Assembly (NCBI GenBank): GCA_024704765.1
Contig: JAKMXF010000066.1
Coordinates: 314,499-378,498, forward strand
Origin: Oopsacas minuta
Lineage: Eukaryota; Animalia; Porifera
DNA length: 64,000 nt
Reading direction: 5' to 3'
The notes beneath the pieces are model-generated. The model worked only from the letters and a program-made list of their open reading frames with translations. It was not told the DNA's origin and ran no database searches. Both the position numbers and the translations under genes were made by a program. The stretch's first letter is position 1, and each line of letters starts with the position of its first letter. Positions 8,170 to 64,000 of the stretch are shown here, piece by piece.

Positions 8170-8192
8170 AAAACGGTGTGTGTGTGTGTGTT
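8170..8192. repeat. (GT)n microsatellite
   Basis: gtgtgtgtgtgtgtgtgt run. Confidence 0.8.
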
Positions 8193-9329: not shown

Positions 9330-9432
9330 ATTATCCTTATGCACAAGTATCCTTATGCACAATTATCCTTATGCACAAGTATCCTTATGCACAATTATCC
9401 ATATGCACAATTATCCATATGCACAATTATCT
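9330..9432. repeat. Minisatellite, 12-bp unit atgcacaaKtatccWt, about 8.5 tandem copies
   Basis: atgcacaattatccttatgcacaagtatccttatgcacaattatcctt... seen directly. Confidence 0.85.
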
Positions 9433-11137
9433 TAACGACCACCTCTGTATAAAGATCACCTGCACCTTGCGGCCACCATTTTTGGTCCCTTACTGGCGCT
9501 AAACCTATCTATAACAGCCACTTTATATAATGGTTGCCTCATATAAGGTCTACCTGTTACAACTCCCCTGTGTGGCCACCATAAACTAATCCGACTATAG
9601 TATCTTAAATATCGGTCACTTGTCTTAAAGCCCAACTTCTCTATATCACCTCCATTCAAATAAATTACCACCAAACTAGTGTATAATTTGTCAAACTCTC
9701 TTTTGCGGCCACCTTTTGGAATAGCTTATTCCGCTTTCTAGTATTGCATAAATCATGTTACACGCAAAACAATAATTGATAAATTTTAGAATAAATTCCA
9801 TACACACGTAATCAGAAATTTGACTTCCTCTTATTAGATAACAATATTTCTGAAATGTTTTCTTAGTAGAATCAGTAAAAACATTTGTAGAGATTGGTAC
9901 AGAGTGGAGTATAAATTATCTTGATTAGAAGTTTCTAAAAAATTGAATTGTTTACAGTTCCAGGTAGATAGAAAGCTTAGTAATCATTTCAAATTCAGAG
10001 AATAGTGGCATTCATGCTAAAACTGAAATTAATTAATCTGCATGTTCAGTGCTGCTAGCCTAGTGCTTTCGAAATATTCTTTAATCACAAAATTTCTTTT
10101 ACCCAAGAGTATAAAATAGAATTTTAGAGCGTGCAATAGTATCTTGTAATAACAATTTTTACTTGAACCATGGACTTTGTAATTCTAAATAATTGAACTC
10201 TCATAAATAACAAAGTGCTCGGGATGGGAGGGGCCCCTGTTTCATTTCTTTATTACCGAGATTTCGTTGTCAGCTGAGTAAAACCAATTAATTTCTAACT
10301 ATAGGGAGTCAAAAACAAATTCGTTATATTACTGTGGGGTTTCGTTATCCGACTTGTTTATTACTGGAGTTAACTGTAATTCATAATGCAACTTCATTAC
10401 CTTATCCAACAATATAACGTAGGTTTTAGAGAATATTTATGTTTGAATTAGCAGTTTTTATTATTCTGTATGGCCACGAAGGATTATGATTTCTATTCAG
10501 AAGAAAACAAGGATAAATGGAGCCGCATACTCTCACAACCTCTAAAAAAGGTATACATATTTCTACGTATATTATTTCTAATGGCATTCTATAATTTTGA
10601 TTTTCCTATTCTGTCTTGTTTACTAATGTTATATATTTTGCGATAATTGTGAACTATTTTACCCAAAATTGAGTAACTATGTTCACTAATTAGATGTTTA
10701 TGTAATTATTAAATATTTATCGCAAGGGTTTCATTCAATTGTCTGCTACTACTACATGTGTAGGAGCGCATAGTATCTATAGTTTCAACTCTAGAAAACA
10801 TTTGGGATTAGTTTACGAGAGTGTTGGTATAATTATAATATTTCCAGGAATTTCCTTCTAAACATTTTTGGGAAATAATCCAATTTTATACATACTTTTC
10901 GGCCTTCTTTCCCAAAATGCTCCAGGGCTCTTATTCAGAGAAATACGGTATGCATATAACGGCATACATATAGCTCCAGTGTTGCCAGATTATGTACCAA
11001 CCAGGTTCATGCCATGTTCTTACCATATCATAAAGTCTTTTAAAGCGGAAATCTATGAACTTTGTTCGTGATCTGCCAACACTGTAATACTCTACACATA
11101 TTTTCATATTCTTATCTTGACAACCATTATATCACAG

Positions 11138-26000: not shown

Positions 26001-27701
26001 AAATACAGTCCTTGTTTGTTCCAAGACCTCATGACTGCTTGTTGGACAGCTGATCCTGACGACCGTCCTACCATGGAGGAATGTGAAAATATAGCCAGTA
26101 ATCCTCTATTTAGCGAAATTCGTAGTATAATGTCCTTTGAGAAAATGGTTAGATTCGCTTCCCATGCTGTTATCACCAACACCCTGAGTGAGACACGAAT
26201 TCCTGGGGATTCTATGGATTTACAGCCGTTAGGCATGGAAGGAGGACTCACCGATTCCATGAAGAGGTATGGTAGTATGTCAATGGAGCCGAGAAAGCCA
26301 AGAATCAAATCTGACATAATTGACTTTGGAAACTTACTCACAGGGGAGAATACACAGATTTGGCTAGGTGCATTTAATGATCCGTATAGGAATAAAGTTG
26401 CAATAGTACAGTATCTGCATGGGCAATTAGGAAGTCGTGTATGGTTTGTAGATGTTTTACCATCAGGGGGAGATGCCTACATAACAGTGCTTACTTCAGT
26501 TAACAAGCAAGTATGGCTAGGTACTAATGAGGGAAAGATAATTGTGATTGATGGAACTTGCTTTAAGAAACTACCAGTTGAATATTCTAATTTAAATACA
26601 AATGAAATACACGCAATTAAGCACGTTGAAATAATGAAGAAAGTGTTTATATCATTTCGCAGTAATGACGTTGCAATTCTAGAAGATAAATTGGAAGTGG
26701 AACTATCAGGAAACTACAAATTTATTATAACAGTTTTCATTACAACAGATAATCCTATATTCACATTCCACCCTGTACAGAGGCATACTAACAGCTGGGA
26801 AGTATGGGGAACTAAGGATGGGTGTACCATAGAAGTTTTCCCGCAGTTACCCAATGGTAAACTCGGTCAGAACTTTAGCAAGTCATTATCAGTAGATCCT
26901 ACTGTTAAGTATCAGCGATTTCATTGCATCGCTTCCTGTTTTCAGGAGGATATACCCGAACAGAAAATAGATGGATATGCAGTAGTATGGATATCTGAAT
27001 GGCAGAGAGCTACAGCTTATGTAATGGGGGTTTTGAGTAGGTCATTGAGAGCTGGTGTGCCAATACCTAAGGATTTGAATAATCCTGATGCGATTAAAGA
27101 GGTAAGATAATACAGTCCAACAGAACTCCTGTTATATCGAATACGGATACATTATAGAAATACCCGCTTATATCCAAGTCTGAAATTGCACAATTATAGT
27201 ATCGAAGTAACATAAATTACACCGGTTAATCAAAACCTGCTTATTTCGAAGTAATTATCGCGGTCACTTGAGCTTGAGTTTTGATTTGTTAATATATTCG
27301 TACTAATTAGTGTGGAACAAATTGTTGCTTATATAGAATGAGCAAAGCCAAATGAATCTCTTTCGAATATGTACAATGTTATCCATGGTTTATTGTTGTG
27401 TATCTGTGTTTAGATTTCTTCTATGTATAATAAAGGCAGGACAATCTACTTGGGAGTGAGTGATGGACACGTGTATAAATTTGATATGGTATCAAGACAA
27501 TTGCTAAATTCCTATGCAATTCATCAAACTAAAGTCAGGAAAATAATTCCATTACCTGCACTAGCGAATGGTAGTGTTTGTGCTGAGAAATGCTGTGAAG
27601 ATCAGCAAATAGTTATAACAGTAGGTAACGGGTTCTATCAACACATTCCTTCTGTAAAGAAAAGCAGAGATTTGTGTCTTGTTGCATTCAGTTTGTCTTA
27701 A
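20061..27701 (+). CDS. Lrrk: LRRK-type ROCO kinase: ANK repeats, LRR, Roc GTPase, COR, Ser/Thr kinase (catalytic loop HLD, DYG), C-terminal WD40-like; join(20061..27101,27414..27701)
   Basis: The first exon is a 7041-bp continuous ORF from a true ATG at 20061. Roc motifs are VIGSFNQGKTSLL (P-loop), WDFAGQEEY (switch II) and GTHLDK. Kinase motifs are VHLDLKAANILV, KLADYGT and GTPGYIAPEV. A GTAAGA donor sits immediately after ...AIKE (exon ends 27101), and a ctgtgtttag acceptor at 27412-13 restores the frame into ISSMYNKGRTIYLGVSDGHVYKFD... up to the stop at 27699-27701. The 312-bp intron contains a MITE. Confidence 0.85.
27111..27280. mobile_element. MITE family A copy inside the single LRRK intron
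   Basis: acagtccaacagaactcctgttatatcgaatacggata ... cgcggtcacttgagcttgagtt. Confidence 0.55.
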
Positions 27702-46100: not shown

Positions 46101-49100
46101 CTACTTATCACATGCACAGAGGATCTCATGGTTTTAATCTAATGGGTCAGTGATAAATAATTTCCATAGACATACAGTCAACTCCCCCAATATCGAACAC
46201 GGATATAGCGAAGTCTGACATTGTACAAATATGGTCCCAAACTGTCAATATAGCAAAATAACAAATTCATCGGGTTATATCGAACTTCGCTTATATCAAA
46301 GTAATTATTGCAGTCCCTTGCGAGCTTCAATATAACAGGAGTTGACTGTAATCCTTCACAACTAAACTACGAATATTACAGATATATCAAACACGTCAGC
46401 AAATACGTACACATAATCTGAGGACAATCGTTAATACTATATATAATAATTCAAACACTGATGTTACAGTAACAAATATCGCAGTTATCGACAGTAAATC
46501 GAAATATAAAGGAAAATATAAACTCAATTTAGGTATAGTGGTATACTAGGCTTATACAGATGTAACATAATACTCAGAATGAGAGGTTAAATACACAAAA
46601 AAATTACAGAAGAATTAAATCAGTCAGTGAAGCATGCAAACAATTCTACTCACTATATTTGTATCTCTGCTGGTACAAAGGGGATATAGCGACGACACTC
46701 CCCCTCTAGGACAAGGGTATTTCATTCCAAAGCATAACTTGCTAGGGGAGCAACTATTAGGCGGGCAAACTCTACTCGACATGACAGCTGATTGTTGGAA
46801 TTGTGTCAGAGACGAAGGTACATATCAGAAAACGGATGTGTACACAAATACGGAGAGATTTTACAGGTCTCTCACCTCGACTACTTCCCTCTCTCCCAAG
46901 CTAGAAACCGACTTCACGCTAGGAGCTACGCTAGACATAACCTCAAACGGGATTAGCGGGGGTGTGAGAAATCTCACTGGAGTATCTTTGAACGATTATA
47001 CAACTTCTTTAATTTGTTTTCTAAAAAGTGTGTGTTTGAGCAAAAACAAATTAAACATTGATTTCCAGAAGGATTTTGAAGCATTGAATCCTAGCATTAA
47101 GGAGCCTTGGTTGGAGTCTAATTGGGTAGATTACGAAACATTCTATAACAAATACGGATCTCACTTTATAACAGAAGTAGCATATGGAGCAAGATTTTAT
47201 GAGCACGCATTTTCAGACGCAAGAATGAGCTATACTTCGCGAAATTTGACAGTTAGAGCATGCGCTGCATTAGCCGGGCCAGCTGGGATTGGTATTCTGG
47301 AGATAGAAGCCTGTGAGGGCATAAATAAACAGGAAATAGACTCAGTGTCTTCTCTTGCTATCTACACACTTCTAGTTATAAGAGGGGGTACAGCTAAAAC
47401 CAGGGCTGAGCTTTATAAGAACAGAACTGTTGCAGGAATAGCAAAGTTTATGAGTGAAGCAAATGCAACCGAAATGCCAATAAAGTACAATTTCATGCCA
47501 ATTTGGTCGCTCCTACAGTTGAGGTATCTAGACACAGAACACTACTCAAAGGCTAGGAACCTTGCTGCGTATTATCTGGGATTTGGTAATTATGGATGTG
47601 AATACCAGCCTGTAATTAATACAAGCAAGTTCAAGGTGGAATATTACCAAAGGTTCGAATACGCTCCGACATCCACTGATAGCATTCCAACATTCCAATG
47701 CGTAATAGCGCCTCAGGGCTGTCACGCTGATACCGACTGTCACAAGCATGACATTATACGCTGCTCATGTCACGGAGATTCCTGTATCAGACATTTCCCT
47801 AACACTCTGGATACTAGTGTTATCAAGAAAGTAGCTCGACCTAACTATGACATAAAATGGGGAGCATACGGTTGTGGACAACACCTCCTAAAGTGTAGTT
47901 GTGACAATATGGACTGGGGATATTCTACAGTATGGCAGCAGGATAAAGACACTGATTATCCTACCATTAAGTCATAAGGGAAACAACTATATATGATTTA
48001 TGCATGATTTCTGGTAAAAGACATTTCATGGAGTAATTTGCCTGTAGTTTGTAGGTACGTATATTGTACACGTAGTTATAAATTATTCAAAATCATAAGA
48101 CACGAGATATTGATGATGGACTATTCTTACCTCTAGGGGGAGGTCCTCGGTAGGATGAACCTTGTCCTTGATAGTTTCCTACAATGAATTCACGTATTAA
48201 TACGGTATAAGCACGTGTACGTATTTCAATTAAGAAACATATCTACACAATTCTACAGTCAACGTAATTTAGTATAGGTCAATTTGTTAGGTAGATAGAC
48301 TGTTTGTGGAATTACGTGCAATTGTTGTGATAGTATATCGTGGAACCTCTGAATAACGAACAATTTGTGGGTTGTAAATATAAATTATCGAAGTGTTCGA
48401 TTCAAGATGCCAAATCGTATATATTTGCGACAAATCAGATTATTCCAATCGTGTAATAATTGAAAAATCTCACAAATATAAAATAAATTTTCATCAACAA
48501 ACATGAATGGAGCGCGGCGAGAAACTAAGAAATTAATAATATTAGACTAGACCATTATAAACATAGAGAATTACGCTTATCAATAGTAAGTCTATCGTCT
48601 ATGCGGTTGGAACGCCATAAAATTTATCAAAAAGTATGAAACTGTAACCGCAAGATTGTTCAAATACCAAACGACAATTATCTATTTTTAATACAAATGA
48701 AATACAACACAGATATGGTAGTGTAATATTACTATATACCTCTAGATCCATAATGATCCATTCCACCACCGCCCATACCAGTAGAATAGTCCTCTCTAGG
48801 ATAGTTAGGTGCACCGTAGTGTTGCTGGTCCTGATAAAAATAATTAAACATGAATATATAAGAGATATACTAACCAACCATTCCTCTAGGTGGAGGAGGC
48901 CCATCATAGGAGGAGGTACCGCCCATACCCATAGATGGTTGTCTCCCTTGTCCCTCGTATGAGTCTGTAGGAGGAGTAGGGTCTCCATAGCTGGGAGGAG
49001 GCTGAGGGGGTCCGTACTGTTGTCCGGGGGCGGAGCCGTAAGAAGGTCCTCCCCTGTACTCAGGTTGCCCTGTACCACCACTTGCTCCACTGTAGCTAGT

Positions 49101-52100
49101 ATTCGCGTACATGCTAGCAGTATTCCCGCTCTGATAGCTTGGCTAGAGAGATATATCAGTCAGTATATACGAAAATATGATCAGCAAATATCATAGAATA
49201 GTGATGTAGCTAGATTGATTAGTTAATACCTGTTGGGAGTATGAAGCATATTGTGAAGTGGAGTATGATGGAGTAGAAGTAGGCGCGTAAGATCCTGCAG
49301 CGCCTGTCAAACAATAGAAACATATTTAGGTGCCCAGTAAAGTACATTAATCATATAATATCTAAGTCAGCGGTTCCCAACTGAGTCAACAGGATCCCAA
49401 AATTTGTATTGCAGTCTATGGGAGAGGGTTCACTACCTGTTAAAATTGGTATAGGGAGTCATTGGTGAAAAAGATTGGGAACCGCTATCTAAGTAATTAA
49501 ATTTTAGAATAAGATATCTTTGGGAAATGGGTCGAATTCCGATAGATATGCTCTAAGAGTGCTTCCAATGGCCTGGTTCAGATCGGCATTCTTATCCAAC
49601 GCAGCAATAAAGCAACGAACGATAAAAGAGTACATACGCATTAAATTCATATAAACAGTGTATTTGCTTGAGCCAGTATATTGATGAAAGAGGCAACCAC
49701 ACATATAAAATAGAATTGATAGTAATGATCGAATATGGTTATTTGTCCTGTGATTTTGTACTTAGATATTATCACAGATTCAGATAAAGGACTTCGTAGA
49801 AGCAAAAGAGACAATTAGAATGGATAATGATTCAATTGGATGGACAATAGTAAGAAACTCTTTGACAGAACTCCAATACATTGTTATAATACCATTACGA
49901 GAATGCTAATTACAGAAATAAATAATTTAAGAAAGAATTTGAAGCAGCAGGTTTGCCATTACAGATGTTAGTCTCTCTAATTATTTGTTAGATAATCTGC
50001 CACAGTTACTGAGCGATTCGCTAACACTACTGTTCATTACAAAGTAGAGTTTGATAGTAGACCTCAGGAAATTACTAACACACCGATTGAAAATGTTAAT
50101 ACACATAGGATATAGCAAAATGAACGGAAAAATTACTTTGAAAAATATGAGTTACTGCAGGGAGTATATTGTGTAATCTAAGAAACAATATGAATACTGC
50201 GAGTATCAGGCAAATCTAATTTCGTTCTTCTTTAGATGTTTAATTTGGTAACTTTAGAGGAAATTATCTAAACTGGTATGGTGATTGCCGATTGTTGTCA
50301 TTTAAGTATTTTCCATTACTTTGTTATATTAGTGACACATTAGATCGTTATCTAAATACAAAGATATGCAAATCTATCAATTTGCAGTAGAATCACCATT
50401 AGATTGATAGTTTAACCTTAAAAAAGGCCTTATACGGTTAAAAAGAATGTTGTATATTACATATACATAGCAAGAATCTATAAAAATAAAAGATAAGATA
50501 ATTCTATGAGAAGTTAACGCAACATTTAGCCAATTAGATAATAATACAACGCAGGGAGATTTTGAGAACTGTATTCAAGAATGAATGGAGAGAAGAGCTA
50601 TAACTCAGGGATATGCACAAGAAGCAACATAAAGTTGATATCTCCAGATTTAGTTAGTCAAACTATTTGTATAAGTAAATCGTCAAATAAATTTACTCGA
50701 GTTAAACTGGAAGAATAAAATGGAGCGGTTCATAAACAAGTTCGTATTAAAAGTTAGCGTGAAGAAATATTATCAGAGACTACCAAGTGAAGATACACCT
50801 AACGAATTGAAGAAAGAGCAAATTCAGGAAATGAATACAGAGAATATTCCAACACAAACCGAATCGAAATTAACTCCACCCTCAAGCACAAAGCTGTTTA
50901 CCCTAATAAAGCGAGGTAAAATAGAGAGAGAAGCGAACAGAGGGAAATACACACAATTAGAAGCAAACTGTAATCTCAGTAAAGAAGAGATGGAAGAAAT
51001 TTACAATAACAATTTCACAGATTAACTCGTGTTGTAAGATATGTATAAATACGCATTAACATTTCACTACTTTGGATGAATTTATAATGGTAATAAATTG
51101 AAGTAAATAATATTATTGACTTGGAATTATGAATTCTCTGAATGTATCATTTGAAATATCATAGGATACAATGTTGTAATATATTGGGCAATTTACCATG
51201 AGATACATAACTATACCGTTGATATTAATAGTACCCAATGAGCACTTATTGTCGAACTACCTAAAACACACTGGAGAGCGAAAACATTTGCTAAAAATTG
51301 ATAATTATGTACCTACGTAAGTACATAAGTTTAACATAACCGTGAGGGACTCAAGGATACTATTCCGATTCACCATTCGGCAGCGTTATACGTTAGGCAT
51401 AGGTCGCTAACAACACAATTCAAGCTGTTAGGTTAAAGTTTAACATATTACGTATCATTAATTACATTACTGATCTACAGTCTTGGGCCATCTGCTATAT
51501 TGACTTAAGGCTTGTGAAATATAATATATTCTCGCGTGATGTTGGGAATAATAGGATTAATTACAAGAATGATTTGCATATAAGTAAACGATTCCTAGAT
51601 GGAATTACTATTGTCCATAGAATTGACGTTAAAATGCCTCAACTTAAACCTAAAAGTAAAAAATCGAAAAAAAAGTCCAAAAAGACACGAAATGGGAAAA
51701 ATAAAAATTGGTACAAGAAGCTAGAAGGGCCTAGCCAGTTCTACAGTGAGAAGGTATTTAATACAAACAGCTCGAGCGAATCTGATTCTGACTTTGAAAT
51801 AGACTGGGGAGAAGAGCGAAATGAAGTTTCATATGAACTAACTCTAAAGTCCCCTACAGATGACTCTGTAATAGTATGCAGTGTACCAGCAAAACCAACT
51901 GGGAAGAAATACATGAAAGAATTAATACATTGTAAAAACTGTGGTGGTTGTAGCTTAGAGCTTGGATGGGAAATACAAACAGAGGAAGGGAAGTTCTATG
52001 TAATTGATTATCACTTGATATTTACTATGGAAGAGTTGCTAGCGATAATTCTCACTGAGAGAATACAGAAATATGCCAGGACTCGTAATGTGAAGAAAAA

Positions 52101-55100
52101 GGCGTCAAAAAGTAATTAAATACTCCTAGAGTATAAATAACGTGTAGAACACTGGTTATGTTTGTATTTGTAGATACATATCCATATAGTTAGTATTTGG
52201 ATATTGTAGAATTGTGTTACATTTTTGAAATAAAATATTTCAATTTGATCTATTAAACTAGACTACTAGTCGAATTGTTTTGACTAAAAATGGTCCTCTA
52301 TATGCGAATTAGATGTTATAAACCATGGATGGTAGATTTCGTGGTTTTAAGTTATATAGAAATTCCTCCCTAATCTCGCATCAAAAATCCTTGACAACAT
52401 CCAAGCATGTATAGTAACTAATCCGGGAAAATACCCAAACCAAAAACAGAGGAGTGCCTTATACAATAGAACAACATTCAAGCAGATATACGAAATCCAC
52501 CATCCATGGTTAATAACCATGTAGAGGAGGAAACAATTTTTGTCATATTATATAACAAATAATAAAATCATATGTATTGTACCATGGATATAACTGATAT
52601 CTGAATACTACATTTATTACTGACTAGAGAAAATATTCAAAAGTTACCAAGCGCAATCCATGAGAACTCATAAAACCTAAAATATATTAACTGTGGATAA
52701 GTGTGTAAACCAATTTCTTAATTCAACTTTAAATGAACGTCAAAAGATGCGAAAATATGATTAATCCTATGATAATTATAAATATTTGTAAATGTAGTGC
52801 TGGAAAAGATACATATGGACAAGTTGTAAATTCCTGGTTTTCTGCTACTGTAAGTGACAAAGTGAATAATAAATAATTTCAAAAAGTTTTCCATCAATTT
52901 TATAGAAAATGTCAATCACAATTACTCCAAACATAAGAACATGGGGAAGACAATGTATAGATGAACCGGCAATTACAAAGGACACGAACTCATAATTATA
53001 TATTACCATAGAAATATACGATGGCATAATTAATCCCATTTCTCGTTATAATATCTATAATTAGATGATATATTACTTAATCTGATATAAATAGAGATGC
53101 TAAGTATACATACAATACGATACACGTGTTGCTCTGCTTTATGGAAATGGAAACTAATATGATTAAAGGTAACTTGGCAGATTAACGTGAGTATTAATAG
53201 AATAACACCTTACTAGATTAAACATATATGAAGCGGCACAATATCTGAAGAGATGGCTGTGTGCACCGTGCACGAGTATATATATATAAGAAAAGAATGG
53301 AGATTGACATAAAGGCAAAAGTCAGAGATGGGAATAATGAACAGTAAGTTCAGTCGAATATCACCTGAAACAGTGGAGAAAGGAGATATCGTAGTAAACA
53401 AGGTTAAATATCCTCGTCAATACGCAGTGTATATCGGAGAAGGGAAAGTTATTGAGTATATACACAAAGGCAATAGTGTGGGAGAGATTATAACAAATAA
53501 CTTGAAGAGTTTCCACAAGAACGGAGTATTAAGAATTCGTGGAATTAGAATATTTAGACTTGAATACCCAGAGAGAGTAGACAGAGCTTACAATCTATTA
53601 ATCAATCCAACTCAGGAATGGAACATGTATAATCATAGGTTTATGAACAGTGAAACATTTGTACGATATTGTACTACAGGGATGTTGAATGATAGAACAA
53701 TACCTATGAGGAGGAGAATAGTTTGGAGTATAGCAGATAAGATTAATAATAGTATTAATGGGAGAGCGAGGAAAAGAATGGAGATTTGATTGTTTGACAA
53801 TAATTATGTATTCTGTAATGTAAAAAAATAATTTAATATGTAAATAAGTATACATGTGGGCAATTCTATTTTACTGATATAGGAACGTTCTTTCGTGTAT
53901 AAATTTGTTTTCATAGGAATGGGGACAACAACAATGCGTAAATACCAAGGGTCTAGTTTTAACAGGATTAGTTTTATGGAAATACTAAAGTCAAATACTT
54001 GACAATTGTCAAGTTATAGAGCATTATAGTATCTTTATTAGCCCTGCTGGTAAGTTGTAATTGAGTAGACAACTCTGATACCAAGGATGTTGTAAATCTA
54101 TCAATCGTAATGAAATCAAGACGGAATGTTTCTATTAACTATCCCTGGTCTATCTGTTACAACTTAAGCGATAAGAACACACACATATGGCACAAGGTGA
54201 GCGGTCCTACCGTCCTGGATCTCAAATATATTATATTATATTATACTATTCGGAATAGGGCAGTATTAAAAAGTCACTTACATATCGTTTCAAAACGACA
54301 AATAAAATATCTCAATACGTGGGTATTATATCCAAAGCTACCTGATTCCAATAACATTATGTTTTGTTGACCTAACCTGCTTGTGACCAAACGTGGTATT
54401 AACCAAATACGACATAGAATAATCAATGGAAAGAGACAGTGCATACTCAAATCTACTCACCGAGAAGAAGAAGGAGGAGGTACAAAGATTTTCAGATAAA
54501 TAAATCTGATATATACGTAACAATATTCCAAATTTAATAAAACAGGTCAATTGATACAATAGCTTACTTGGGTTGGCCCCATGTTCATAAGACTGAGCTC
54601 CTCCTGTCGTGTAAGGTCTGGATGCAGTATTACTCCCGTAGTAAGGGGAACTAACAGCTGTAGTAGTGGTTATGGTTGTGTCTCCATACGAGTAGCTGCT
54701 ATAGCTACCAGTCCCTGGTCGCTAAATTACAATACAAGTACACTGTTGTATAAACTGTATATACTACCTGAATATTTGAACATTGTCACATAAATGGATT
54801 ACGATCGTTCTGTATAATGAAGATATCAAAAATGACTTGATTTACTCCAGAAACAATGGAATTTGTAAATGCCTAACCAAAAGATGCGCTAATGACGTCA
54901 GATTACCACACATATATGCTACATACATACGAGTTACGTTGACAATACATAACATAGAATGAAGCAATATGTAAGATACCTGTGTAGCATATGAATCAGT
55001 GGTAGGCTGATATTGAGGAACTGAAGTAGGAGCAGTGGTAGAACGAGCAGTAGACTGAGTGTAGTTATAGTACTGATAAGGATCAGAAGTGTAGCTAGAG

Positions 55101-55971
55101 ATAGAATAGGATAATTGATAAACAAATTGGTAAAGACGTTTGATAATCTCACTTGTAAGTTGAATATGTAGCAGCTTGAGTAGGGTCAGTAGCTGGAGCT
55201 ACACTAGTAGAGGCAGCAGACACAGCAGCAACACCGCTAGCACTGGTAGAGTAACTACTGTATGGATTCTGATACTGAGGATAGCTATAGGATAGGATAA
55301 ATAAGTTTCAATTGACCTACAACATGCAAGTAAGAAGTAATAATCAGGTATATACCTAGAATAAGCAGCAGCAGTGCTCCCTGTAGACACAGAGGGAGTA
55401 GTTGTGGCTGTAGACTGACCAGTGAGAGAGTAGTTAACTCCGTACAGAGCCTGTGCTGCAGCCGCAGTAGAACTATCGTATAGAGCTAATGGAATAAATG
55501 TTGAAGTAAAGTGAGAGTATTTTATCATATGGCATGGAAATTTTAGAGACCATATATAACTACAGCATAATCTCCATAAACAGGGAAAATGCTATCTAGG
55601 GTCCTCGTTGCTGCCAAATTCCCCCTTCGCGGAGGTACATGTTCATTTGTATGGGCTAGGAGTTCGCTCTATTTATTTTTTCCACTCAGTTTCCAGAAAT
55701 TCCGTTTCCACAGGCCCCCGTAAGTGGAAGAATCACTAAAACTCAAAAACTTTGATATAAGAAATGTATGTCAAAATATAATTTTCATAAACGATAAATT
55801 ACTGCATCAAATCGACATGTATTTACCTGTTGGCGCAGGGGTAGCAGTACTGACAGCTAAAGAGGTAGAAGTACCCGTGGCGTCATAAGCAACACTAGCA
55901 ACACCTGGTATAGCGTAGGGGAGAGGTGGAGGCATCAGGTAGGGATAATACGAAGGATAGCTGTTTGTCAT
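40152..55971 (-). CDS. FET-family RNA-binding protein (FUS/EWS/TAF15 homolog; cabeza-like): SYGQ-rich low-complexity N-terminus, RGG, RRM, RGG, RanBP2 zinc finger, RGG, C-terminal PY-NLS; 15 exons, about 687 aa
   Basis: Minus-strand exons: 55971-55827 (ATG), 55485-55356, 55284-55153, 55094-54980, 54721-54568, 49303-49230, 49142-48879, 48820-48730, 48178-48131, 46055-45971, 45909-45821, 45563-45200 (RRM), 42458-42331 (ZnF), 41981-41796 and 40210-40152 (stop). Every junction has a GT donor and AG acceptor, and the codon phases chain without a break. Total coding length is 2064 nt. The N-terminus reads [19 protein letters not shown]... and is SY/G/Q/T-rich. The RRM reads [75 protein letters not shown]. 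The zinc finger reads [26 protein letters not shown]. The C-terminus reads ...[30 protein letters not shown]. Confidence 0.8.
42331..42458 (-). CDS. FET gene exon 13: RGG plus RanBP2-type zinc finger
   Basis: [42 protein letters not shown]; acceptor catttgctttag, donor A|GTAAGT. Confidence 0.8.
45200..45563 (-). CDS. FET gene exon 12: RRM plus RGG
   Basis: See the FET gene entry; acceptor ccattgtttag, donor GGAAG|GTGAGA. Confidence 0.8.
45603..45711. mobile_element. MITE family A copy in FET intron
   Basis: acagtcagctccccttatatcgaagc ... gttactttgactgt. Confidence 0.5.
46174..46350. mobile_element. MITE family A copy with perfect TIRs (acagtcaactccc / gggagttgactgt-like), in FET intron
   Basis: acagtcaactcccccaatatcgaacacggatatagcg ... 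cttcaatataacaggagttgactgta. Confidence 0.65.
46634..47977 (+). CDS. Secreted MACPF-domain (perforin-like) protein with Cys/His-rich C-terminal module; intronless; nested on the opposite strand in a FET intron
   Basis: True ATG at 46634 and signal peptide [24 protein letters not shown] signature [13 protein letters not shown] (consensus [YW]-G-[ST]-H-[FY]-x6-G-G). C-terminal [50 protein letters not shown]. Sits between FET exons 48178-48131 and 46055-45971. Confidence 0.7.
   Translation: MQTILLTIFVSLLVQRGYSDDTPPLGQGYFIPKHNLLGEQLLGGQTLLDMTADCWNCVRDEGTYQKTDVYTNTERFYRSLTSTTSLSPKLETDFTLGATLDITSNGISGGVRNLTGVSLNDYTTSLICFLKSVCLSKNKLNIDFQKDFEALNPSIKEPWLESNWVDYETFYNKYGSHFITEVAYGARFYEHAFSDARMSYTSRNLTVRACAALAGPAGIGILEIEACEGINKQEIDSVSSLAIYTLLVIRGGTAKTRAELYKNRTVAGIAKFMSEANATEMPIKYNFMPIWSLLQLRYLDTEHYSKARNLAAYYLGFGNYGCEYQPVINTSKFKVEYYQRFEYAPTSTDSIPTFQCVIAPQGCHADTDCHKHDIIRCSCHGDSCIRHFPNTLDTSVIKKVARPNYDIKWGAYGCGQHLLKCSCDNMDWGYSTVWQQDKDTDYPTIKS
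50720..51025 (+). CDS. Hypothetical small Lys/Glu-rich protein (101 aa), true ATG; inside large FET intron
   Basis: ORF with an ATG start; no recognisable domain. Confidence 0.25.
   Translation: MERFINKFVLKVSVKKYYQRLPSEDTPNELKKEQIQEMNTENIPTQTESKLTPPSSTKLFTLIKRGKIEREANRGKYTQLEANCNLSKEEMEEIYNNNFTD
51634..52119 (+). CDS. Hypothetical basic protein (first ATG at 51634; the track ORF from 51514 starts on GTG) with [11 protein letters not shown] tract and CKNCGGC motif; inside FET intron
   Basis: ORF only; no recognisable domain. Confidence 0.25.
   Translation: MPQLKPKSKKSKKKSKKTRNGKNKNWYKKLEGPSQFYSEKVFNTNSSSESDSDFEIDWGEERNEVSYELTLKSPTDDSVIVCSVPAKPTGKKYMKELIHCKNCGGCSLELGWEIQTEEGKFYVIDYHLIFTMEELLAIILTERIQKYARTRNVKKKASKSN
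53281..53292 (+). promoter_or_regulatory. TATA-like element (tatatatataag) about 40 bp upstream of the LRAT-like gene ATG
   Basis: Sequence motif only. Confidence 0.3.
53328..53789 (+). CDS. LRAT/H-rev107-like paralog, N-myristoylation motif MGIMNS, predicted catalytically dead (conserved His and Cys both replaced); nested in FET intron
   Basis: ATG at 53328. Aligns with the 1361-1810 protein: [19 protein letters not shown] versus GDILYRYLGG..LYHYGVYLG (His to Gln), and [12 protein letters not shown] versus NCEHFTSYCATG (Cys to Ser, His to Thr). Confidence 0.55.
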   Translation: MGIMNSKFSRISPETVEKGDIVVNKVKYPRQYAVYIGEGKVIEYIHKGNSVGEIITNNLKSFHKNGVLRIRGIRIFRLEYPERVDRAYNLLINPTQEWNMYNHRFMNSETFVRYCTTGMLNDRTIPMRRRIVWSIADKINNSINGRARKRMEI

Positions 55972-56296
55972 CTCTCAATGATGAAATTATATAAGTCACA
56001 ATATGCTAATTATAGAATTAAAATATAGTCAACTACATACGGATTATAATAGCTGAGGTTGCATAACAATACCAATGTTTTCAGTGTAGTCTATTGGCTC
56101 ATAACAACCATGATTAGTGTCAACCTGAGGAGAAAACTACACAATTCACGGAGTATGTAAATTTGTAAATAAATTATATTCTATATATAGTATACAAAGG
56201 TGATAATTATGTATTCAAATATTAAATCGTGAGTAGAATAATTTTACCCATAACTCTTATGGGTAAACCATTTGGTTTACTTACAAGTGTAATGGG

Positions 56297-58574
56297 TAAA
56301 ATTATCGCACAGTGCGGAGAAGATTACTTGGATAAAGACGAATAATCTCAATCCAGTGAATTCACAATTCTTATAAGAGCCAGTCACACAGTCAGGACTC
56401 TATGAATATACAGTAGTGCTTTGAATTGATATTGTTACCTTATAGCTTAGTATCATAGTCAGTCTACCCGGGCACTGATTAGTACAAACTAGACAAATTG
56501 CTACAAATTTTGCATACATACATTTGGAGCCTAGATTGCCTTAGAGTAGCCAATTCAATACCTACGTCTCCTTCGATACGATTGCTCAAGTTGAACTGAT
56601 CAATTCTTATTATACAACTAACTGGTGTAAATCCAAACGAGTGATTTAATTCTGTTAGTTTATTAAATGACTGATTATTGAATGTCAGCTTCTGATATGA
56701 AAAGGAGTGACATGTGATCTGTTCAGTGTTATTTCAATGAAATCGAAGCCATTTTCAAATTGTTTCTACTGGGGTACTAACTAGTACTCATTGGACGAAT
56801 TGCTACATTTTGCATCCTGCGATAATATGGTTGCCAAACAGCTCAATTCCTTTTATCCAACTTCAACAACTAATCTGTATGGACATGACTTTAGTGAGTT
56901 TAGATTCCTTGAATTTTATAGTTTATACGTAATTTATTTGAATGTTTTAATCCCAAATTGGATAATTAACTTTAATAATCACACATCTGAATTATCAAAT
57001 AGCCATTAGAATGGCATCAAACATACCATCCAATGAGATAGAACAGTTCGATGATATCTCTAAACAAATCCAAGAGAAATTCGACCTTCTCATCCGTCGA
57101 TTGATCGTAAGGAGAGATGGTCTCTTAGACAGACTATTACAACTCAAGGAGGATTATATCAACAAAGAAACAACTCGAATTTCATCCATAAAAGATCTAG
57201 AAAGAATACGAAAAGAAATAGAAGAAATGAGGAGTAGAGTAAATACCAATAATCAGATCCATGAACAAGCTGCTCAGTTATACGATAAGGGTCTTGAGGA
57301 TCTCAGAGTACCAACAAATCTACAAATCCCTGTATTCCATTATCCATCATTACAACAAATCAAATCACTAATTGATCAATTCGGGGAGATAGAGTTGGAG
57401 GTACCAAACCAGACTGAAAAGGAACCTAAGGTAACACCTCAAGCAAATCTGTGCTGGAAGAAGTCATTTCCATCATTAGTGGGGGGAAACAGCTGGAAGA
57501 TGGGGAATTCCCTTTCCGACTACGATACCCAGATGGAGAGCTGCATAAATGATGTTCCCAGGTGAATATAAATATGATGTATAATAATCCCTAATTGAAT
57601 TTTATTTTAGTGGTAACATAGAAATATTCATCAAAACTCTGACTGGTAAGATAATCACTCTTTATGTTAAGCCTACTGACACTATTGAAGTATTACGTGC
57701 TAACATCCGAGACAAGGAAGGGATCCCTTCCAACCAGCGGCTCATATTTGCTGGGGAACAGCTAAAAGATGAGAGAACCCTATCCGACTACAATATCAAG
57801 AACGGGAGTACACTCCATTTGCATGTAGTATTCCGGCTTAAGAATGGCATACAAATATTCATCAATACTCTGACTGGTAAGACAATAACTCTTTATGTTA
57901 AGCCTAGTGACACCATTGAAAACGTATGTTATCAAATTCAGGACAGGGAAGGGATCCCTCCCGACCAGCAACGCCTCATATTTAGAGGGAAACAGCTGGA
58001 AGATTGGAGAACACTATCCGACTACAATATCAATAACGGGAGTACACTCCATTTAGTACTCCGGCCTAAGAATGCCATGGAAATATTCATCAAAACTCTG
58101 ACTGGTAGGACTATCACCCTTGATGTTGGGCTTAGTGACACCATTGAAAACGTGCGTTATAAGATTCAGGACAAGGAAGGGATCCCTCCCGACCAGCAAC
58201 GCCTCATATTTGAAGGGAAACAGCTGGAAGATTGGAGAACACTATCCGACTACAATATCAATAACGGGAGTACACTCCATTTAGTACTCCGGCCTAAGAA
58301 TGCCATGGAAATATTCATCAAAACTCTGACTGGTAGGACTATCACCCTTGATGTTGGGCTTAGTGACACCATTGAAAACGTGCGTTATAAGATTCAGGAC
58401 AAGGAAGGGATCCCTCCCGACCAGCAACGCCTCATATTTGAAGGGAAACAGCTGGAAGATTGGAGAACACTATCCTACTACAATATCAATAACGGGAGTA
58501 CACTCCATTTAGAACTCCGGCTTAAGAATGGAGAAATAATTAGAAGATGGATGAACACTATTCTACCTAAATAG
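56297..58574. repeat. Segmental tandem duplication, copy 1 (upstream region plus fusion gene A)
   Basis: 56297-56660 is near-identical to 59150-59510, and 56905-58574 is homologous to 59910-61344. Confidence 0.75.
57011..58574 (+). CDS. Fusion gene A: TRIM-like coiled-coil N-terminal exon plus four tandem ubiquitin-like domains lacking the C-terminal Gly-Gly; join(57011..57561,57611..58574)
   Basis: Exon 1 runs from the ATG at 57011 to ...CINDVP, then CAG|GTGAAT donor (GT at 57562-63). The 49-bp intron ends ttttag (57609-10). Exon 2 restores the frame (AG+T=Ser) into [26 protein letters not shown]... The four 76-80-aa repeats are 70-80% identical to ubiquitin ([76 protein letters not shown] versus [76 protein letters not shown]). 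Their ends are RPKNA, RLKNG and FRLKNG, not LRGG. Confidence 0.75.
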
Positions 58575-58606
58575 GTAATACGAAGGATAGCTGTTAGTCA
58601 TCCCCC
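58575..58606 (-). pseudogene. Remnant copy of FET exon 1 start (ATGACTAACAGCTATCCTTCGTATTACC) abutting the stop codon of fusion gene A, marking the tandem-duplication junction
   Basis: 58575-58720 is about 85% identical to 55940-56090 (the FET 5' end and first-intron donor region), then diverges. Confidence 0.6.
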
Positions 58607-58971
58607 AACACAGATTAGTGTAATTATGCCACAATATGCTAATTATAGGAATGTAATATAGTCGTATACATAGAGATTATAATAGCTGAGGTTTCATAAT
58701 AATACATTGTTTCAGGGGCGGATACGCACAGGTTTAAGAGAATCACGGTGATAAATGAGTAAATGTGTTGGATACCCGTTGGGTGTGTTTCTCCCCTTTG
58801 CTATTCTATTGGACATCAAGTGCCACTATTTGACACCAACCAAATTTGTCTGACCAATAGGCTACTAATATATGTGATTATGACATCTCAGGGCACCGCC
58901 CTCCTCTGTATGTAACTCTGATTGATTATATATCAGCCATAATTGTCATTGGGGTCACAGCTAAAGTAACT

Positions 58972-59095
58972 AACCATTAGAATGGCATCAAAAATGGGAT
59001 AGAACAGTTCGATGATATCTCCTAACAAATCGACGAGAAATTCGACCTTCTCATCTGCCGATTGATCTTAAGGATACATGCTCTCTTAAGCCCGC
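58972..59095 (+). pseudogene. Degenerate fragment of the coiled-coil exon (ATGGCATCAAA..GATAGAACAGTTCGATGATATCTC..) with an internal deletion
   Basis: Aligns to 57004-57125 with a roughly 13-bp deletion and substitutions; no intact ORF. Confidence 0.6.
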
Positions 59096-59687
59096 CATAC
59101 ATACATTTTTCTATCGAGATGTTGATTGGTGCTGCTATAATTATACACACTGTGCGAAGAAGATTACTTGGATAAAGACGAATAATCTCAATTCAGTGAA
59201 TTCACAATTCTTATAAGAGCCAGTCACACAGTCAGGACTTCATGAATATAAAGTAGTGCTTTGGATTGATATTGTTACCTTATAGCTTAGTATCATAGTC
59301 AGTCTACCCGGGCACTGATTAGTACAAACTAGACAAATTGCTACAAATTTTGCATACATACATTTGGAGCCTAGATTGCCTTAGAGTAGCCAATTCAATA
59401 CCTACGTCTCCTTCGATACGATTGCTCAAGTTGAACTGATCAATTCTTATTATACAACTAACTGGTGTAAATCCAAACGAGTGATTTAATTCTGTTAGTT
59501 TATTAATTATAAGAATGTTGTTACAACAAATTTGGATAAAGTAACAAATAATAATATGTATTATACGTAGTTTGTTATTAACTTACAAGAAATCTGATAG
59601 GTCTATAGATCATCTATCGTCTATAACTATGTCTATCATGGGTCACAACTAAAGTAACTAACTAACAGACGAGGGCAATCTCTTTTT

Positions 59688-59856
59688 GGTACTCCAGGTA
59701 CTGACACCATTGAGATATTGAAGCAATATATCCATGATAAAGAAGGGATACCCCCAGACTACCAGTTAATTTCTTTTGCCAGTAAGCAGTTGGAGGATTT
59801 GGCTACCCTCTCCAAATACAAAATCCAGTATAGGAGCACTCTGAACATAGTTTATT
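59688..59856 (+). pseudogene. Degenerate ubiquitin-like fragment ([52 protein letters not shown])
   Basis: Recognisable Ub core (KEGIPPD..KQLED..L..Y.I...STL) but diverged and terminated; lies between the two fusion-gene copies. Confidence 0.55.
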
Positions 59857-60014
59857 AATAATATTTAGGAAACATGACTTCATATCCCTTGGATTATAAA
59901 ACCCTCGTTCTAACTATATTTATAGTTTATACATAAATTATTTGAATGTTTTAATCCCAAATTGGATAATTAACTTTAATAATCACACATCTGAATTATC
60001 AAATAGCCATTAGA

Positions 60015-61344
60015 ATGGCATCAAACATACCATCCAATGAGATAGAACAGTTCGATGATATCTCTAAACAAATCCAAGAGAAATTCGACCTTCTCATCCG
60101 TCGATTGATCGTAAGGAGAGATGGTCTCTTAGACAGACTATTACAACTCAAGGAGGATTATATCAACAAAGAAACAACTCGAATTTCATCCATAAAAGAT
60201 CTAGAAAGAGCACGAAAAGAAATAGAGGAATTGAGGAGTAGAGTAAATACCAATAATCAGATCCATGAACAAGCTGCTCAGTTATACGATAAGGGTCTTG
60301 AGGATCTCAGAGCACCAACAAATCTACAAATCCCTGCATTCCATTATCCATCATTACAACAAATCAAATCACTAATTGATCAATTCGGGGAGATAGAGTT
60401 GGAGGTGCCTAAGATAACACCTCAAGATAAGAGTAAATCTGTGCTGGATAAAGTCATATCCATCAATAGTGATAGGAAACAGCTGGAAGATGAGAGTACT
60501 CTACCTGTCTACGATACCCAGATGAAGAACTGCCTACATGTTGTTCCGAGGTGAATATACATATGATGTATAATAAAATTTGTCTATGGAGTATACATTT
60601 TTATAACTAATTATATTGTATTTCAGGGATAACATAAAAATATTCATCAAAACTCTGACTAGGACTATCACCCTTGATGTTGGGCTTAGTGACACCATTG
60701 AAAACGTGCGTTATAAGATTCAGGACAAGGAAGGGATCCCTCCCGACCAGCAACGCCTCATATTTGAAGGGAAACAGCTGGAAGATTGGAGAACACTATC
60801 CGACTACAATATCAAGACCGAGAGTACACTCCATTTAGTACTCCGGCACCGGGGTACCATGCGAATATTCATCAAACCTATAACTGGTAAGACTATCACT
60901 CTTGAGGTTGAGCCTAGTGACACCATTGCAAACGTGTGTGCTAAGATTCAGGACAAGGAAGGGATCCCTCCCGACCAGCAACGCCTCATATTTAGAGGGA
61001 AACAGCTGGAAGATTGGAGAACACTATCCGACTACAATATCAATAACGGGAGTACACTCCATTTAGTACTCCGGCCTAAGAATGCCATGCAAATATTCAT
61101 CAAACCTATAACTGGTAAGACTATCACTCTTGAGGTTGAGCCTAGTGACACCATTGCAAACGTGTGTGCTAAGATTCAGGTCAGGGAAGGGATCCCTCCC
61201 TACCAGCAACGCCTCATATTAGCAGGGAAACAGCTGGAAGATTGGAGAACACTATCCTGCTACAATATCAAGAAAGATTTTACACTCCATTTAATGGTCC
61301 GCCCTCGCTCAGAGCTAGAATTTGAAGAGAGCAATATGAATTAA
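60015..61344 (+). CDS. Fusion gene B (tandem paralog of A): coiled-coil exon plus three ubiquitin-like domains without Gly-Gly; join(60015..60550,60627..61344)
   Basis: ATG at 60015. The first 130 aa are almost identical to gene A. Donor CCGAG|GTGAAT (GT at 60551-52), acceptor tttcag at 60625-26, and AG+G=Arg restores the frame into [77 protein letters not shown] / [49 protein letters not shown]... Stop at 61342-44. The 95 bp upstream of both ATGs are identical. Confidence 0.7.
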
Positions 61345-62182: not shown

Positions 62183-64000
62183 ATGTCAATGGAAAAGCCG
62201 CGATTCAAAGTAAGAGCTCAACTACCCGACGAGGAATCACCACACACATTCACGATTATGCCATCTGTCGCATTCCCAATGCTACACACCCACTTGAAGG
62301 AAATTTCTGGGCTAAGTCAGATTATTGTGACGTACCAAGATGAAGAAGGTGACGATGTAACTCTGACTAATGAAGAGGAGTTCACAGAGGCTAAGAGGAT
62401 GCTTGACCTCGGGAACATCTTATCACTACGACTTACAGTCACTGCAGGACCAAATGCTACCCCCTATAAGAAGGAAGAGCCTGTTATAACCACAACCTCC
62501 AGGCCACAGCCTACTCCACGATCTGCCGGGAAGACGAAGAAAACCGGATACTATCCCGAGCTGGCGGAGGAGCTGGGAGAGATGCTTCATGTATCTACAC
62601 CAAAGGAATCTGTACCTGTGAACAGAAATACACAAACTACTCCTGACCTCACTAATGTAAGTTTAGTTGATTGGGGCCTTTTCTCATCTGGGTTCTTTAA
62701 TTATCGGAAATTTTGTCATCGAAAAAACATACATTGTAGAAAAGAAATAGACTTTTGGATGTAATTCCTTCTGATTATTTCGTATATATGATTTTTCTCG
62801 TGTAAAGAATTGGCAAAAAACTACTGTAATTCTCATTTATTTATTTTATACATTTTGAAATTCTTTAGAATAAATCTGAATGGACTGACTCTTTTCTCTC
62901 TACTGCTTCTAAAGAAATAACAAATGTTCTAGACTCTCTACTCAAATCAGTAACAGCCGAGCCATCTTCTCTCATGAAGACCAGCTCCAGTAGCATGTGT
63001 CATACGGGCATCCTCTGTAAGCTATGCAACAAAACTATAATCGGGAATCGTTACAAATGTGGGAATTGTGCCGAGTTCGATCTCTGTGAACTATGTCTAC
63101 TGAATCCAGATGCTCACGACCCCACCCACATACTAATGCTTATACGTCTGCCCTGTCCAGGAGCTGGATACATTGACGATGAACCTGTACCAATGCTACG
63201 AGAGAACATATACCAGCCTAACGACAACAATGAGGAAAAGTTATTCAAACAATTCTACGCTGATAAACAGGCTAATAAGAAAGCAAAAAAGGCTTTGAAG
63301 TTAGAAAGGAAAATAAAGAAGATGATACTGCCCCAACATGTAGAGGCTAAGGTAATTTAATATACTATCATAACATTTATTCGAGCTGTCCATACCTACT
63401 CTATATGATCTCAAAATTTGTATTATAGTCTATGGAAAGGGGTCTACTGGTGAACGGTTATGAACTGTTGTTTTATTTATACGTAGAAAACTATACGATA
63501 GTTATTAATATTCATTTATCAAGATTTTATTGTGCAAATTCTACAATGCATATGACGTAATACATTACACGCTTATGACCAATTCGGGAAAAATCCTTAT
63601 ATGATTTATGGCTGCTAGTTGTCTGTATATGCTTAATAAAGAACCTTCTAATAATAATATTTCCATATACGTAGGTTGGAGCCTTACAGTCTGACATCGA
63701 ACTCAGGCGCAAAGAAATTAAAGAATTACGAGGAAAAATACGATCTACTAAGAAGGGCGTGGGTGTATTCTCTGAGGATATAGCATTACAAGAACCTTCT
63801 CAGGATTTCAGTGTTAGAATTCTAAGAGATACAAGCGAGTGTGCAGTCGTTCTTCCTATGAGTAGAGGTAGCTGTAAATGGCTTGTAGAAAACAACGGAG
63901 ATTCATTTTGGACTTCTGTTCGCTTCCATTGTGTGTCAGGAAATTTGTTAACAGATGAGAGACAGATTAGCTTGCCGTTCTGCTCACAGGGTGATCAGAT
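62183..64000 (+). CDS. NBR1/p62(SQSTM1)-like selective-autophagy receptor: PB1 domain, ZZ zinc finger, FW(NBR1-box)-like region; 5' part of gene, continues past window end; join(62183..62656,62869..63351,63675..>64000)
   Basis: ATG at 62183. PB1-like IIVTYQDEEGDDVTLTNEEEFTEAKRM. Donor AAT|GTAAGT at 62657, acceptor ttctttag at 62867-68. ZZ finger CHTGILCKLCNKTIIGNRYKCGNCAEFDLCELC..DAHDPTH. Donor AAG|GTAATT at 63352, acceptor cgtag at 63673-74. Exon 3 (..SCKWLVENNGDSFWTSVRFHCVSGNLL..) carries the W-spaced pattern of the NBR1 FW domain. All junctions are phase 0. Confidence 0.7.

Follow-up and report, generated by a model that had tools for sequence, protein, structure and literature searches.

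Tandem genes of the glass sponge Oopsacas minuta fuse a family-specific coiled coil to arrays of ubiquitin-like units without Gly-Gly ends

The tandem ubiquitin-like modifiers ISG15 and FAT10 retain Gly-Gly at the C-terminus and undergo conjugation. Non-conjugatable ubiquitin-like domains built into a larger protein are also well known; in Rad23, ubiquilin/Dsk2 and parkin, such a domain serves for docking to ubiquitin receptors. On RIG-I, K63-linked polyubiquitin can be replaced by the two ubiquitin-like domains of OASL (PMC4446440). USP2 does not take apart an engineered head-to-tail Ub6 that lacks Gly-Gly, and in flies this Ub6 resists deubiquitinases, is itself ubiquitinated (PMC7348737) and is reported to be degraded by the proteasome. 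With a lysine-less Ub6, NF-kB activation was Ile44-dependent, and toxicity depended on Ile44 and NF-kB signalling (PMC7348737). Here, we describe two neighbouring genes in a 64,000-nt stretch of the genome of Oopsacas minuta, a glass sponge (hexactinellid); this stretch is called the window below and all coordinates are window positions. The products of these genes join an N-terminal coiled coil to four or three head-to-tail units derived from ubiquitin, none of which ends in Gly-Gly. The gene pair is genuine, publicly annotated, uncharacterised, lineage-restricted and young.

Gene 1 (exons 57011-57561 and 57611-58574, plus strand) encodes 504 residues with four ubiquitin-like units, and gene 2 (exons 60015-60550 and 60627-61344, plus strand) encodes 417 residues with three. 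Each has a single GT..AG intron, and the intron position is the same in both genes. The spliced models match exactly the public proteins KAI6659068.1 (hypothetical protein LOD99_14744) for gene 1 and KAI6659069.1 (hypothetical protein LOD99_14745) for gene 2. This bears out the original prediction, made from the DNA sequence before this analysis, of two tandem duplicates in which a helical N-terminal module is spliced to four or three ubiquitin-derived domains, and the intron lengths of 49 nt and 76 nt given there agree with both the models and the public annotation. That annotation was made with BRAKER/Augustus alongside RNA-seq read mapping (PMC10280926). There is no mention of ubiquitin, NHL or TRIM in the genome paper (PMC10280926), literature keyword searches for a family combining a coiled coil with a ubiquitin-like array found no description, and exact-protein look-ups of the open reading frames (ORFs) of the window found none on record. 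The architecture had been proposed to be new; this holds for the literature searched, but the genes were already public as hypothetical proteins.

Matches to Pfam PF00240 cover four stretches in gene 1 (E = 3.5e-110) and three in gene 2 (E = 3.2e-83), all far over the gathering score. Tandem Repeats Finder reported a 228-nt period with 4.0 copies in gene 1 and 2.9 copies in gene 2, at 90% matches. The units follow each other head-to-tail in a register of 76 residues with no spacer, the exceptions being the first units, which have 77 residues in gene 1 and 75 in gene 2. Across the seven units, 52-61 of 76 residues are identical to ubiquitin (68-80%). An identity of 70-80% had been claimed and most units lie in this range, with unit 1 of gene 1, at 68%, just under it. 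The units of gene 1 end in RLKNG, RPKNA, RPKNA and RLKNG, the last followed by a 13-residue tail, and those of gene 2 in RHRGT, RPKNA and RPRSE plus a tail. Thus, the LRLRGG terminus of ubiquitin has been lost from every repeat, as predicted, with 0/7 spliced units ending in Gly-Gly. An exposed or exposable C-terminal Gly-Gly for E1 activation is also absent because both proteins close with other tails. Because Gly75-Gly76 is kept in no unit, established ubiquitin biochemistry predicts that deubiquitinases could not release monomers from the array and that it could undergo neither E1 activation nor conjugation, and the earlier view that it is not canonically processable or conjugatable stands. 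Both genes are therefore best described as encoding ubiquitin-domain proteins and not as a source of ubiquitin.

The repeats had also been described as near-identical in nucleotides within each gene, as in polyubiquitin arrays. We did not find this. Pairwise nucleotide identity of the units ranges from 72 to 98%, with 98% reached only by units 3 and 4 of gene 1. The likeness to polyubiquitin arrays is misleading in this respect because the differences between units are mostly nonsynonymous, with a ratio of nonsynonymous to synonymous rates (dN/dS) of approximately 1 and not 0. The units are mosaic; in gene 2, unit 2 is close to unit 3 of the same gene over its first half and to unit 2 of gene 1 over its second, which suggests unequal crossing-over or gene conversion. 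A search with the array for nearer relatives returned canonical polyubiquitins only, at no more than 79% identity, but it also missed the database entry of the array itself and is a weak negative.

The reading that we favor, with a probability of approximately 45%, is that these are functional, fast-evolving proteins in which an oligomerising stalk would display a permanent, linear-chain-like array as a recruitment signal or degradation tag. The coiled coil would oligomerise, perhaps together with NHL or C2 paralogues. The resulting complex would permanently display an array that resists deubiquitinases and looks like a linear ubiquitin chain, and this could be read by ubiquitin receptors, be they proteasomal receptors, autophagy receptors or other ubiquitin-binding domains. 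Read in this way, the array would either signal recruitment constitutively or mark the cargo of the complex for degradation as a built-in tag. The fast turnover of copies and surfaces would fit a conflict-driven role such as innate defence. The alternative that survives best is that the genes are young chimeras becoming pseudogenes, where, in a duplication-prone region, a coiled-coil exon acquired a segment of polyubiquitin origin downstream of it and the copies are drifting without function, with ORFs that are open only through recency.

The pattern of substitution bears on this choice. We made a tree-free count of minimal codon changes among the seven units and separated the core, defined as 17 buried positions of ubiquitin, from all other positions. 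Core codons have 6 synonymous and 2 nonsynonymous changes (dN/dS, or omega, ~0.12; p = 0.005 versus neutrality), whereas non-core codons have 10 synonymous and 52 nonsynonymous changes (omega ~1.4), and the two classes differ (p = 0.0013). Compared with ubiquitin itself, 3/17 core positions are changed, all conservatively (M1I, V5I, V26L), versus 38/59 other positions (Fisher p = 8e-4). The indels within units are all in frame (4/4), and no stop codon has arisen from the 70 or more substitutions, an outcome with a neutral chance of approximately 7-8%. These results argue against pseudogenes and indicate that selection has maintained the ubiquitin fold in the arrays. The surface outside the core, the Ile44 face and the joint between units appears to be either free to change or diversifying.

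A second argument against decay comes from the Ile44 face. Across the seven units, the ten positions of this face (L8, R42, I44, G47, K48, Q49, H68, V70, L71, R72) are changed in only 7/70 cells of the alignment. I44, H68, R42, G47, Q49 and R72 are invariant, position 8 is L or I, and Val70 is present in 5/7 units. By comparison, 53/273 cells are changed in the rest of the surface and 55/70 in the tail and Met1-region positions (2, 16, 18, 62-64, 73-76), the latter being a set chosen after the data had been seen. When ubiquitin units are chained head-to-tail, each tail is linked to the Met1 that follows it, and Lys63 is a neighbour of Met1; the remodelled surface is therefore the joint between units. 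Thus, it appears that the receptor-binding Ile44 face is largely kept and that the tail and Met1/Lys63 surface is remodelled. The beads would keep the face that receptors read, and the joints would no longer resemble substrates of deubiquitinases, E1 or E2. The original prediction proposed a constitutive polyubiquitin-chain mimic. This would be a reasonable mechanism, and it fits both the kept Ile44 face and the purifying selection on the core.

Several points weigh against the functional reading, and some of them favor the pseudogene alternative. Over all codons there are 16 synonymous and 54 nonsynonymous minimal changes, giving an overall dN/dS of 0.97, and pairwise values among units range from 0.56 to 2.85. 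Non-core omega does not exceed 1 significantly (p = 0.44). Because the units are paralogues that partly recombine, the substitution counts are not fully independent. The core, face and junction sets are based on the known structure of ubiquitin (1UBQ for the core), and the comparison at the junction is a description and not a test. Unit 3 of gene 2, the last of that array, and unit 1 of gene 1 are heavily changed, including in the binding face (V70M, L71V; a two-residue insertion). The proteins are annotated only as hypothetical, and database searches found no orthologue with the same array in another species. Finally, the two copies are recent, so that the coexistence of the genes says little about selection.

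In a full-length AlphaFold2 model of the gene 2 product, the helical module leads into disorder at residues 125-178 (predicted local distance difference test score, pLDDT, <50), three beta-grasp domains at 181-251, 257-327 and 333-403 (pLDDT 81-95; means of ten-residue blocks, 77-95) and a short terminal helix. Unit 1 is among those predicted to be beta-grasp, with a pLDDT of 88-95. That all three units of gene 2 are predicted to fold, including the heavily altered last one, is a further point against decay. The linker of approximately 55 residues is predicted to be disordered, and residues 137-179 of gene 2 still align to ubiquitin with phmmer, marking this stretch as a decayed ubiquitin unit. 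Compared with gene 2, the linker of gene 1 has an extra 18-21-nt insertion, and a 7-nt deletion followed later by a 1-nt insertion puts approximately 19 codons in another frame. These frameshifted codons count in favor of the pseudogene alternative. From the alignment of the two genes, the linker tolerates frameshifting indels and the units do not.

To place the N-terminal module, an exhaustive HMMER (phmmer) search was conducted with the N-terminal 152 residues against 1.84 billion cluster representatives. This returned 80 representatives at E <=1e-3 and 27 at E <=1e-10, among them the 417-residue KAI6659069.1, which matches the query without a difference, and the family members that were checked are all from O. 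minuta or from ENA/Logan assemblies. Identity of the relatives is 22-42% over approximately 130 residues in the family alignment and up to 47% over the stretches matched by HMMER. The motifs of the N-terminal ~135-residue family domain, F-D-x-V-x3-I-x2-T-F-x2-L-I...R-R-D-x-L-L and P-T-x-L-P-x-P-x-F...F-G-E-V, are present. Most full-length relatives have 385-413 residues, with NHL repeats after the ~135-residue module. Two others, both from O. minuta, have C2 domains instead and are annotated as "Toll-interacting protein B-like" and "ToLlIp-like", naming that probably reflects just the C2 domain; they have consecutive accessions (KAI6650871.1, KAI6650872.1) on one 424-kb contig outside the window. 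Another has a Cys/His-rich tail left unclassified by Pfam, and two (P0160, P0182) have a single ubiquitin-like domain, again without Gly-Gly. A profile search with a 38-sequence alignment yielded nothing further except 16 short ENA ORFs, and no additional architecture. A word-index homology search with exon 1 gave no match, but it also missed the exon's own database entry and is a weak negative. The idea that the end of the module is derived from ubiquitin was rejected because the alignment places this stretch in the conserved part of the family domain. By these comparisons, the N-terminal module, a three-helix coiled coil of approximately 125 residues, belongs to a lineage-restricted family and is not an orphan.

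The module had been called TRIM-like, but its link to TRIM coiled coils is weak. With the 38-sequence alignment, AlphaFold2 predicts helices at residues 9-76 (68 residues), 81-97 and 114-123 in the gene 2 module (mean pLDDT 93.3), and many relatives carry NHL repeats. Neither protein contains a Cys/His cluster or a Pfam match indicating a RING, or a Pfam match to a B-box. No RING or B-box lies upstream, since all aligned relatives share a Met-Ala-Ser/Thr N-terminus; the sponge protein begins MASNIPSNE and runs straight into the helical module, with the first helix starting at residue 7-9 in the AlphaFold2 models. Pfam gave nothing above threshold on the first ~150 residues, where the sub-threshold matches were typical of helical sequence. 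A profile search against PDB sequences gave TRIM45, a weak match at E = 0.12, and Foldseek with the predicted module found nothing significant. "TRIM-NHL-like without RING and B-box" therefore seems a fair description of the family architecture, but TRIM membership fails on two defining features.

Contig ctg72564 of ENA ERZ25072730 carries a tandem cluster made up of a coiled-coil-NHL gene of 413 residues, several ORFs with NHL repeats, of which some look broken up, and a transposase-derived ORF of the FAM200/ZBED5 type. The genomic setting suggests that the coiled-coil family expands in clusters near mobile-element remnants.

A similar fusion is found in a second genome. Contig ctg126364 (696 kb) of ENA ERZ25072740, the source of P0160, contains, at 6409-10571 of locus L001, three adjacent intronless genes: two encode the coiled coil plus a ubiquitin-like part (207 and 272 residues) and the third encodes the coiled coil plus NHL (390 residues). 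The ubiquitin-like pair again lacks Gly-Gly and adjoins its closest coiled-coil-NHL paralogue. In a neighbour-joining tree of the coiled-coil module this trio is monophyletic in 95/100 bootstraps, and it lies in a major branch apart from that of the O. minuta pair, the closest relatives of which are NHL and C2 proteins. A single origin of all coiled-coil and ubiquitin-like fusions was rejected because such a clade appeared in 0/100 bootstraps of this tree; each ubiquitin-like unit is closest to ubiquitin itself, so the units are uninformative about a common origin. Because the fusions fall in separate branches, the stalk gained a non-conjugatable ubiquitin-like head at least twice. Such repetition argues that the combination is useful rather than accidental, and counts against the pseudogene alternative. 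Together, these data indicate that head-swapping is a habit of this coiled-coil family. Near the trio are an IBR-domain ORF at 13852-14505 (minus strand) and ankyrin-repeat ORFs.

Both O. minuta genes lie within a tandem duplication of approximately 2.6-3 kb, detected by repeat analysis and blastn, with 56915-58295 paired to 59919-61305. The coiled-coil exons differ at only 6/131 codons (4 nonsynonymous), so the duplication is recent. A dead third copy lies between the intact genes and, judged by its in-frame stops and truncation, is a local control for genuine pseudogene decay; of its remains, the ubiquitin-like relic at 59697-59858 probably stems from its final unit. The presence of this decayed copy and truncated relic between the genes also favors the pseudogene alternative. 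A 370-nt non-coding element, perhaps a promoter, UTR or mobile element, was duplicated together with the genes; it has no ORF of at least 40 residues, no Rfam or tRNA match and no third copy in the window. The features of the locus are listed in Table 1. Considering both sides, we regard decay of the two intact genes as doubtful, although it retains a real chance of being correct.

Table 1. Features of the O. minuta locus in window coordinates.
Feature	Position	Strand	Evidence or remark
3'-flank-like relic, upstream edge of duplicated unit	55946-56080	.	blastn, 80% to 58576-58712; repeat family D8
370-nt non-coding element, copy A	56297-56666	.	97% identity to copy B
Gene 1 coiled-coil module (residues 1-123)	57011-57379	+	6/131 codons differ from gene 2; homologous N-termini in ~80 cluster representatives
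Gene 1 linker to end of exon 1, with relic of decayed ubiquitin unit	57380-57561	+	Nucleotide alignment of genes 1 and 2
Gene 1 intron, 49 nt, GT..AG	57562-57610	+	Spliced product = KAI6659068.1
Gene 1 unit 1, 77 residues, ends RLKNG, 68% identity to ubiquitin	57618-57848	+	
Gene 1 unit 2, 76 residues, ends RPKNA	57849-58076	+	
Gene 1 unit 3, 76 residues, ends RPKNA	58077-58304	+	
Gene 1 unit 4 (ends RLKNG), 13-residue tail and stop codon	58305-58574	+	
Gene 1 3' flank = start of second duplicated unit	58576-58712	.	blastn
Dead coiled-coil exon fragment, in-frame stops	58968-59088	+	82% identity to 56997-57127; reads ATG GCA TCA AAA ATG GGA TAG
370-nt non-coding element, copy B	59136-59506	.	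Between the two dead-copy fragments
Older truncated ubiquitin-like relic, 53 residues, 63% identity to ubiquitin, ends NIVY and stop	59697-59858	+	
Gene 2 coiled-coil module (residues 1-123)	60015-60383	+	Family alignment; AlphaFold2 pLDDT 93.3
Gene 2 linker; 3' part 60423-60550 = degenerate ubiquitin unit, predicted disordered	60384-60550	+	phmmer; pLDDT
Gene 2 intron, 76 nt, GT..AG	60551-60626	+	Spliced product = KAI6659069.1
Gene 2 unit 1, 75 residues, Gly10 codon deleted in frame, ends RHRGT	60634-60858	+	
Gene 2 unit 2, 76 residues, ends RPKNA	60859-61086	+	
Gene 2 unit 3 (most diverged, ends RPRSE), tail LEFEESNMN and stop codon	61087-61344	+	

The functional reading can be extended to the whole family, in a form that we consider unlikely as it stands. 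Glass sponges would have plug-and-play adaptors with one oligomerising stalk and swappable heads, namely an NHL propeller, a Tollip-type C2 domain, a Cys/His-rich tail or a ubiquitin-like array. The members with arrays would be deubiquitinase-proof mimics of linear chains that hand cargo bound by their paralogues to the proteasome or to NBR1/p62-type receptors without E1-E2-E3, a ligase-independent "pre-ubiquitination" that would have been invented more than once.

Two further explanations are variants that the present data do not separate. In the first, the array is a built-in degron, where an uncleavable fusion is extended on its remaining lysines by the ubiquitin-fusion-degradation route. 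This would turn over the protein together with its coiled-coil partners and so set the levels of NHL and C2 paralogues. Retention of Lys48 in 6/7 units with loss of Lys63 in 6/7 and of Lys27 in 7/7 would suit this idea, as would the module being common to many paralogues and the ubiquitination in vivo of the Gly-Gly-less Ub6 described above, together with its reported degradation by the proteasome. However, Lys48 retention may simply mirror conservation of the binding face, and hetero-oligomerisation of the coiled coils is a putative premise; we think it improbable that a degron is the whole explanation. In the second, the proteins are decoys or traps whose diversifying surfaces would soak up microbial or viral ubiquitin-directed enzymes or effectors, or host deubiquitinases, without being consumed. 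The rapid change outside the core (omega ~1.4), the differences between units of one protein, the tandem birth and death of genes at the locus, and a family that is expanded, domain-shuffling and lineage-restricted are all consistent with such conflict. The lack of significance for an omega above 1 and the loss of the Gly-Gly tail, which removes the main grip of deubiquitinases, make a decoy very unlikely. Lastly, an ordinary polyubiquitin precursor that was mis-read or mis-annotated would account for the 228-nt head-to-tail period and for polyubiquitins being the best database matches of the array, but it is excluded by the sequence because the units are 20-32% off ubiquitin with mostly nonsynonymous differences, no unit has a Gly-Gly end, and a 180-residue N-terminus that is not ubiquitin is spliced on.

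Other genes in the window were also surveyed. Just downstream of gene 2 are a PB1-domain ORF (62183-62764, plus strand) and a ZZ zinc-finger ORF (62974-63360, plus strand). Together they look like an NBR1/p62-like gene, which may run off the end of the window, confirming that such a gene lies directly downstream as had been noted. This adjacency is no evidence of a functional link. On the other side, a FET gene had been placed head-to-head with the locus. Using tblastn with human FUS domains, we found FET-like exons on the minus strand encoding a RanBP2-type zinc finger (42406-42332) and an RRM (45549-45304). A minus-strand FET-like gene is thus present, and the Ser/Tyr-rich ORF starting at 55971 (minus strand) is a candidate for its first exon. 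A Ser/Tyr/Gly/Gln/Pro-rich ORF (48870-49112, minus strand) is also counted as a FET-like exon, and between these exons, on the opposite strand, is an intronless MACPF-domain ORF with a hydrophobic N-terminus (46634-47977, plus strand), which may be intron-nested. Farther away, 20061-27110 (plus strand) is an uninterrupted 2349-residue ORF of the LRRK/ROCO type with ankyrin repeats, leucine-rich repeats, Roc, COR-A and a kinase domain. Two ORFs resemble LRAT/H-rev107, one at 1304-1810 (plus strand) with an NCEHF motif and one at 53328-53789 (plus strand; 21.1 bits, below the Pfam cut-off of 24.3) with NSETF; the latter, with this Cys-to-Ser change, may lack catalytic activity. Scans of the window for Rfam families and tRNAs found nothing.

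What is unusual here is the combination of three to four near-ubiquitin domains with the exact spacing of a linear chain and with all sites of cleavage and conjugation erased. Also unusual are a fold under purifying selection, a largely kept Ile44 face, a stalk shared with NHL and C2 proteins, and recurrence in a second genome. If functional, the proteins would be a natural counterpart of the uncleavable linear chains made in the laboratory, and an early-branching animal would have wired the recruitment of ubiquitin receptors directly into a gene. Should they instead be chimeras with a short life, the locus still gives a clear view of domain shuffling and of gene birth and death.

Comparison with known systems places these proteins as a variant within the class of integral ubiquitin-like-domain proteins and not as a new kind of system. 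Like the polyubiquitin precursors (UBB/UBC, yeast UBI4), the sponge arrays have head-to-tail units derived from ubiquitin in an exact 76-residue (228-nt) period with no spacer. Unlike them, they lack any Gly-Gly end for processing or conjugation, their units differ by 20-32% from ubiquitin and mostly nonsynonymously among themselves, and the genes add an N-terminal coiled coil and linker and have an intron at a unit boundary. ISG15 and FAT10 also carry at least two ubiquitin-like domains in one chain, whereas the sponge proteins lack their Gly-Gly and close with C-terminal tails. Rad23, ubiquilin/Dsk2 and parkin have a single, much more diverged domain as compared to three or four near-ubiquitin units in polyubiquitin register. 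The TRIM-NHL proteins (Brat, LIN-41/TRIM71, TRIM2/3/32) differ in having RING and B-box domains and in carrying NHL repeats where the sponge pair has ubiquitin-like units, and there is no significant similarity to them by sequence or Foldseek. OASL is closer in that tandem non-conjugatable ubiquitin-like domains are fixed to another domain and stand in for a chain, a role that is shown for OASL and proposed here. It has two such domains versus three or four, on an OAS-like fold and not a coiled coil. Ub6-Stop (PMC7348737) is likewise a genetically encoded head-to-tail array with no internal or terminal Gly-Gly; by contrast, the sponge genes are natural, with diverged surfaces, Lys63 and Lys27 largely lost, and a coiled-coil anchor.

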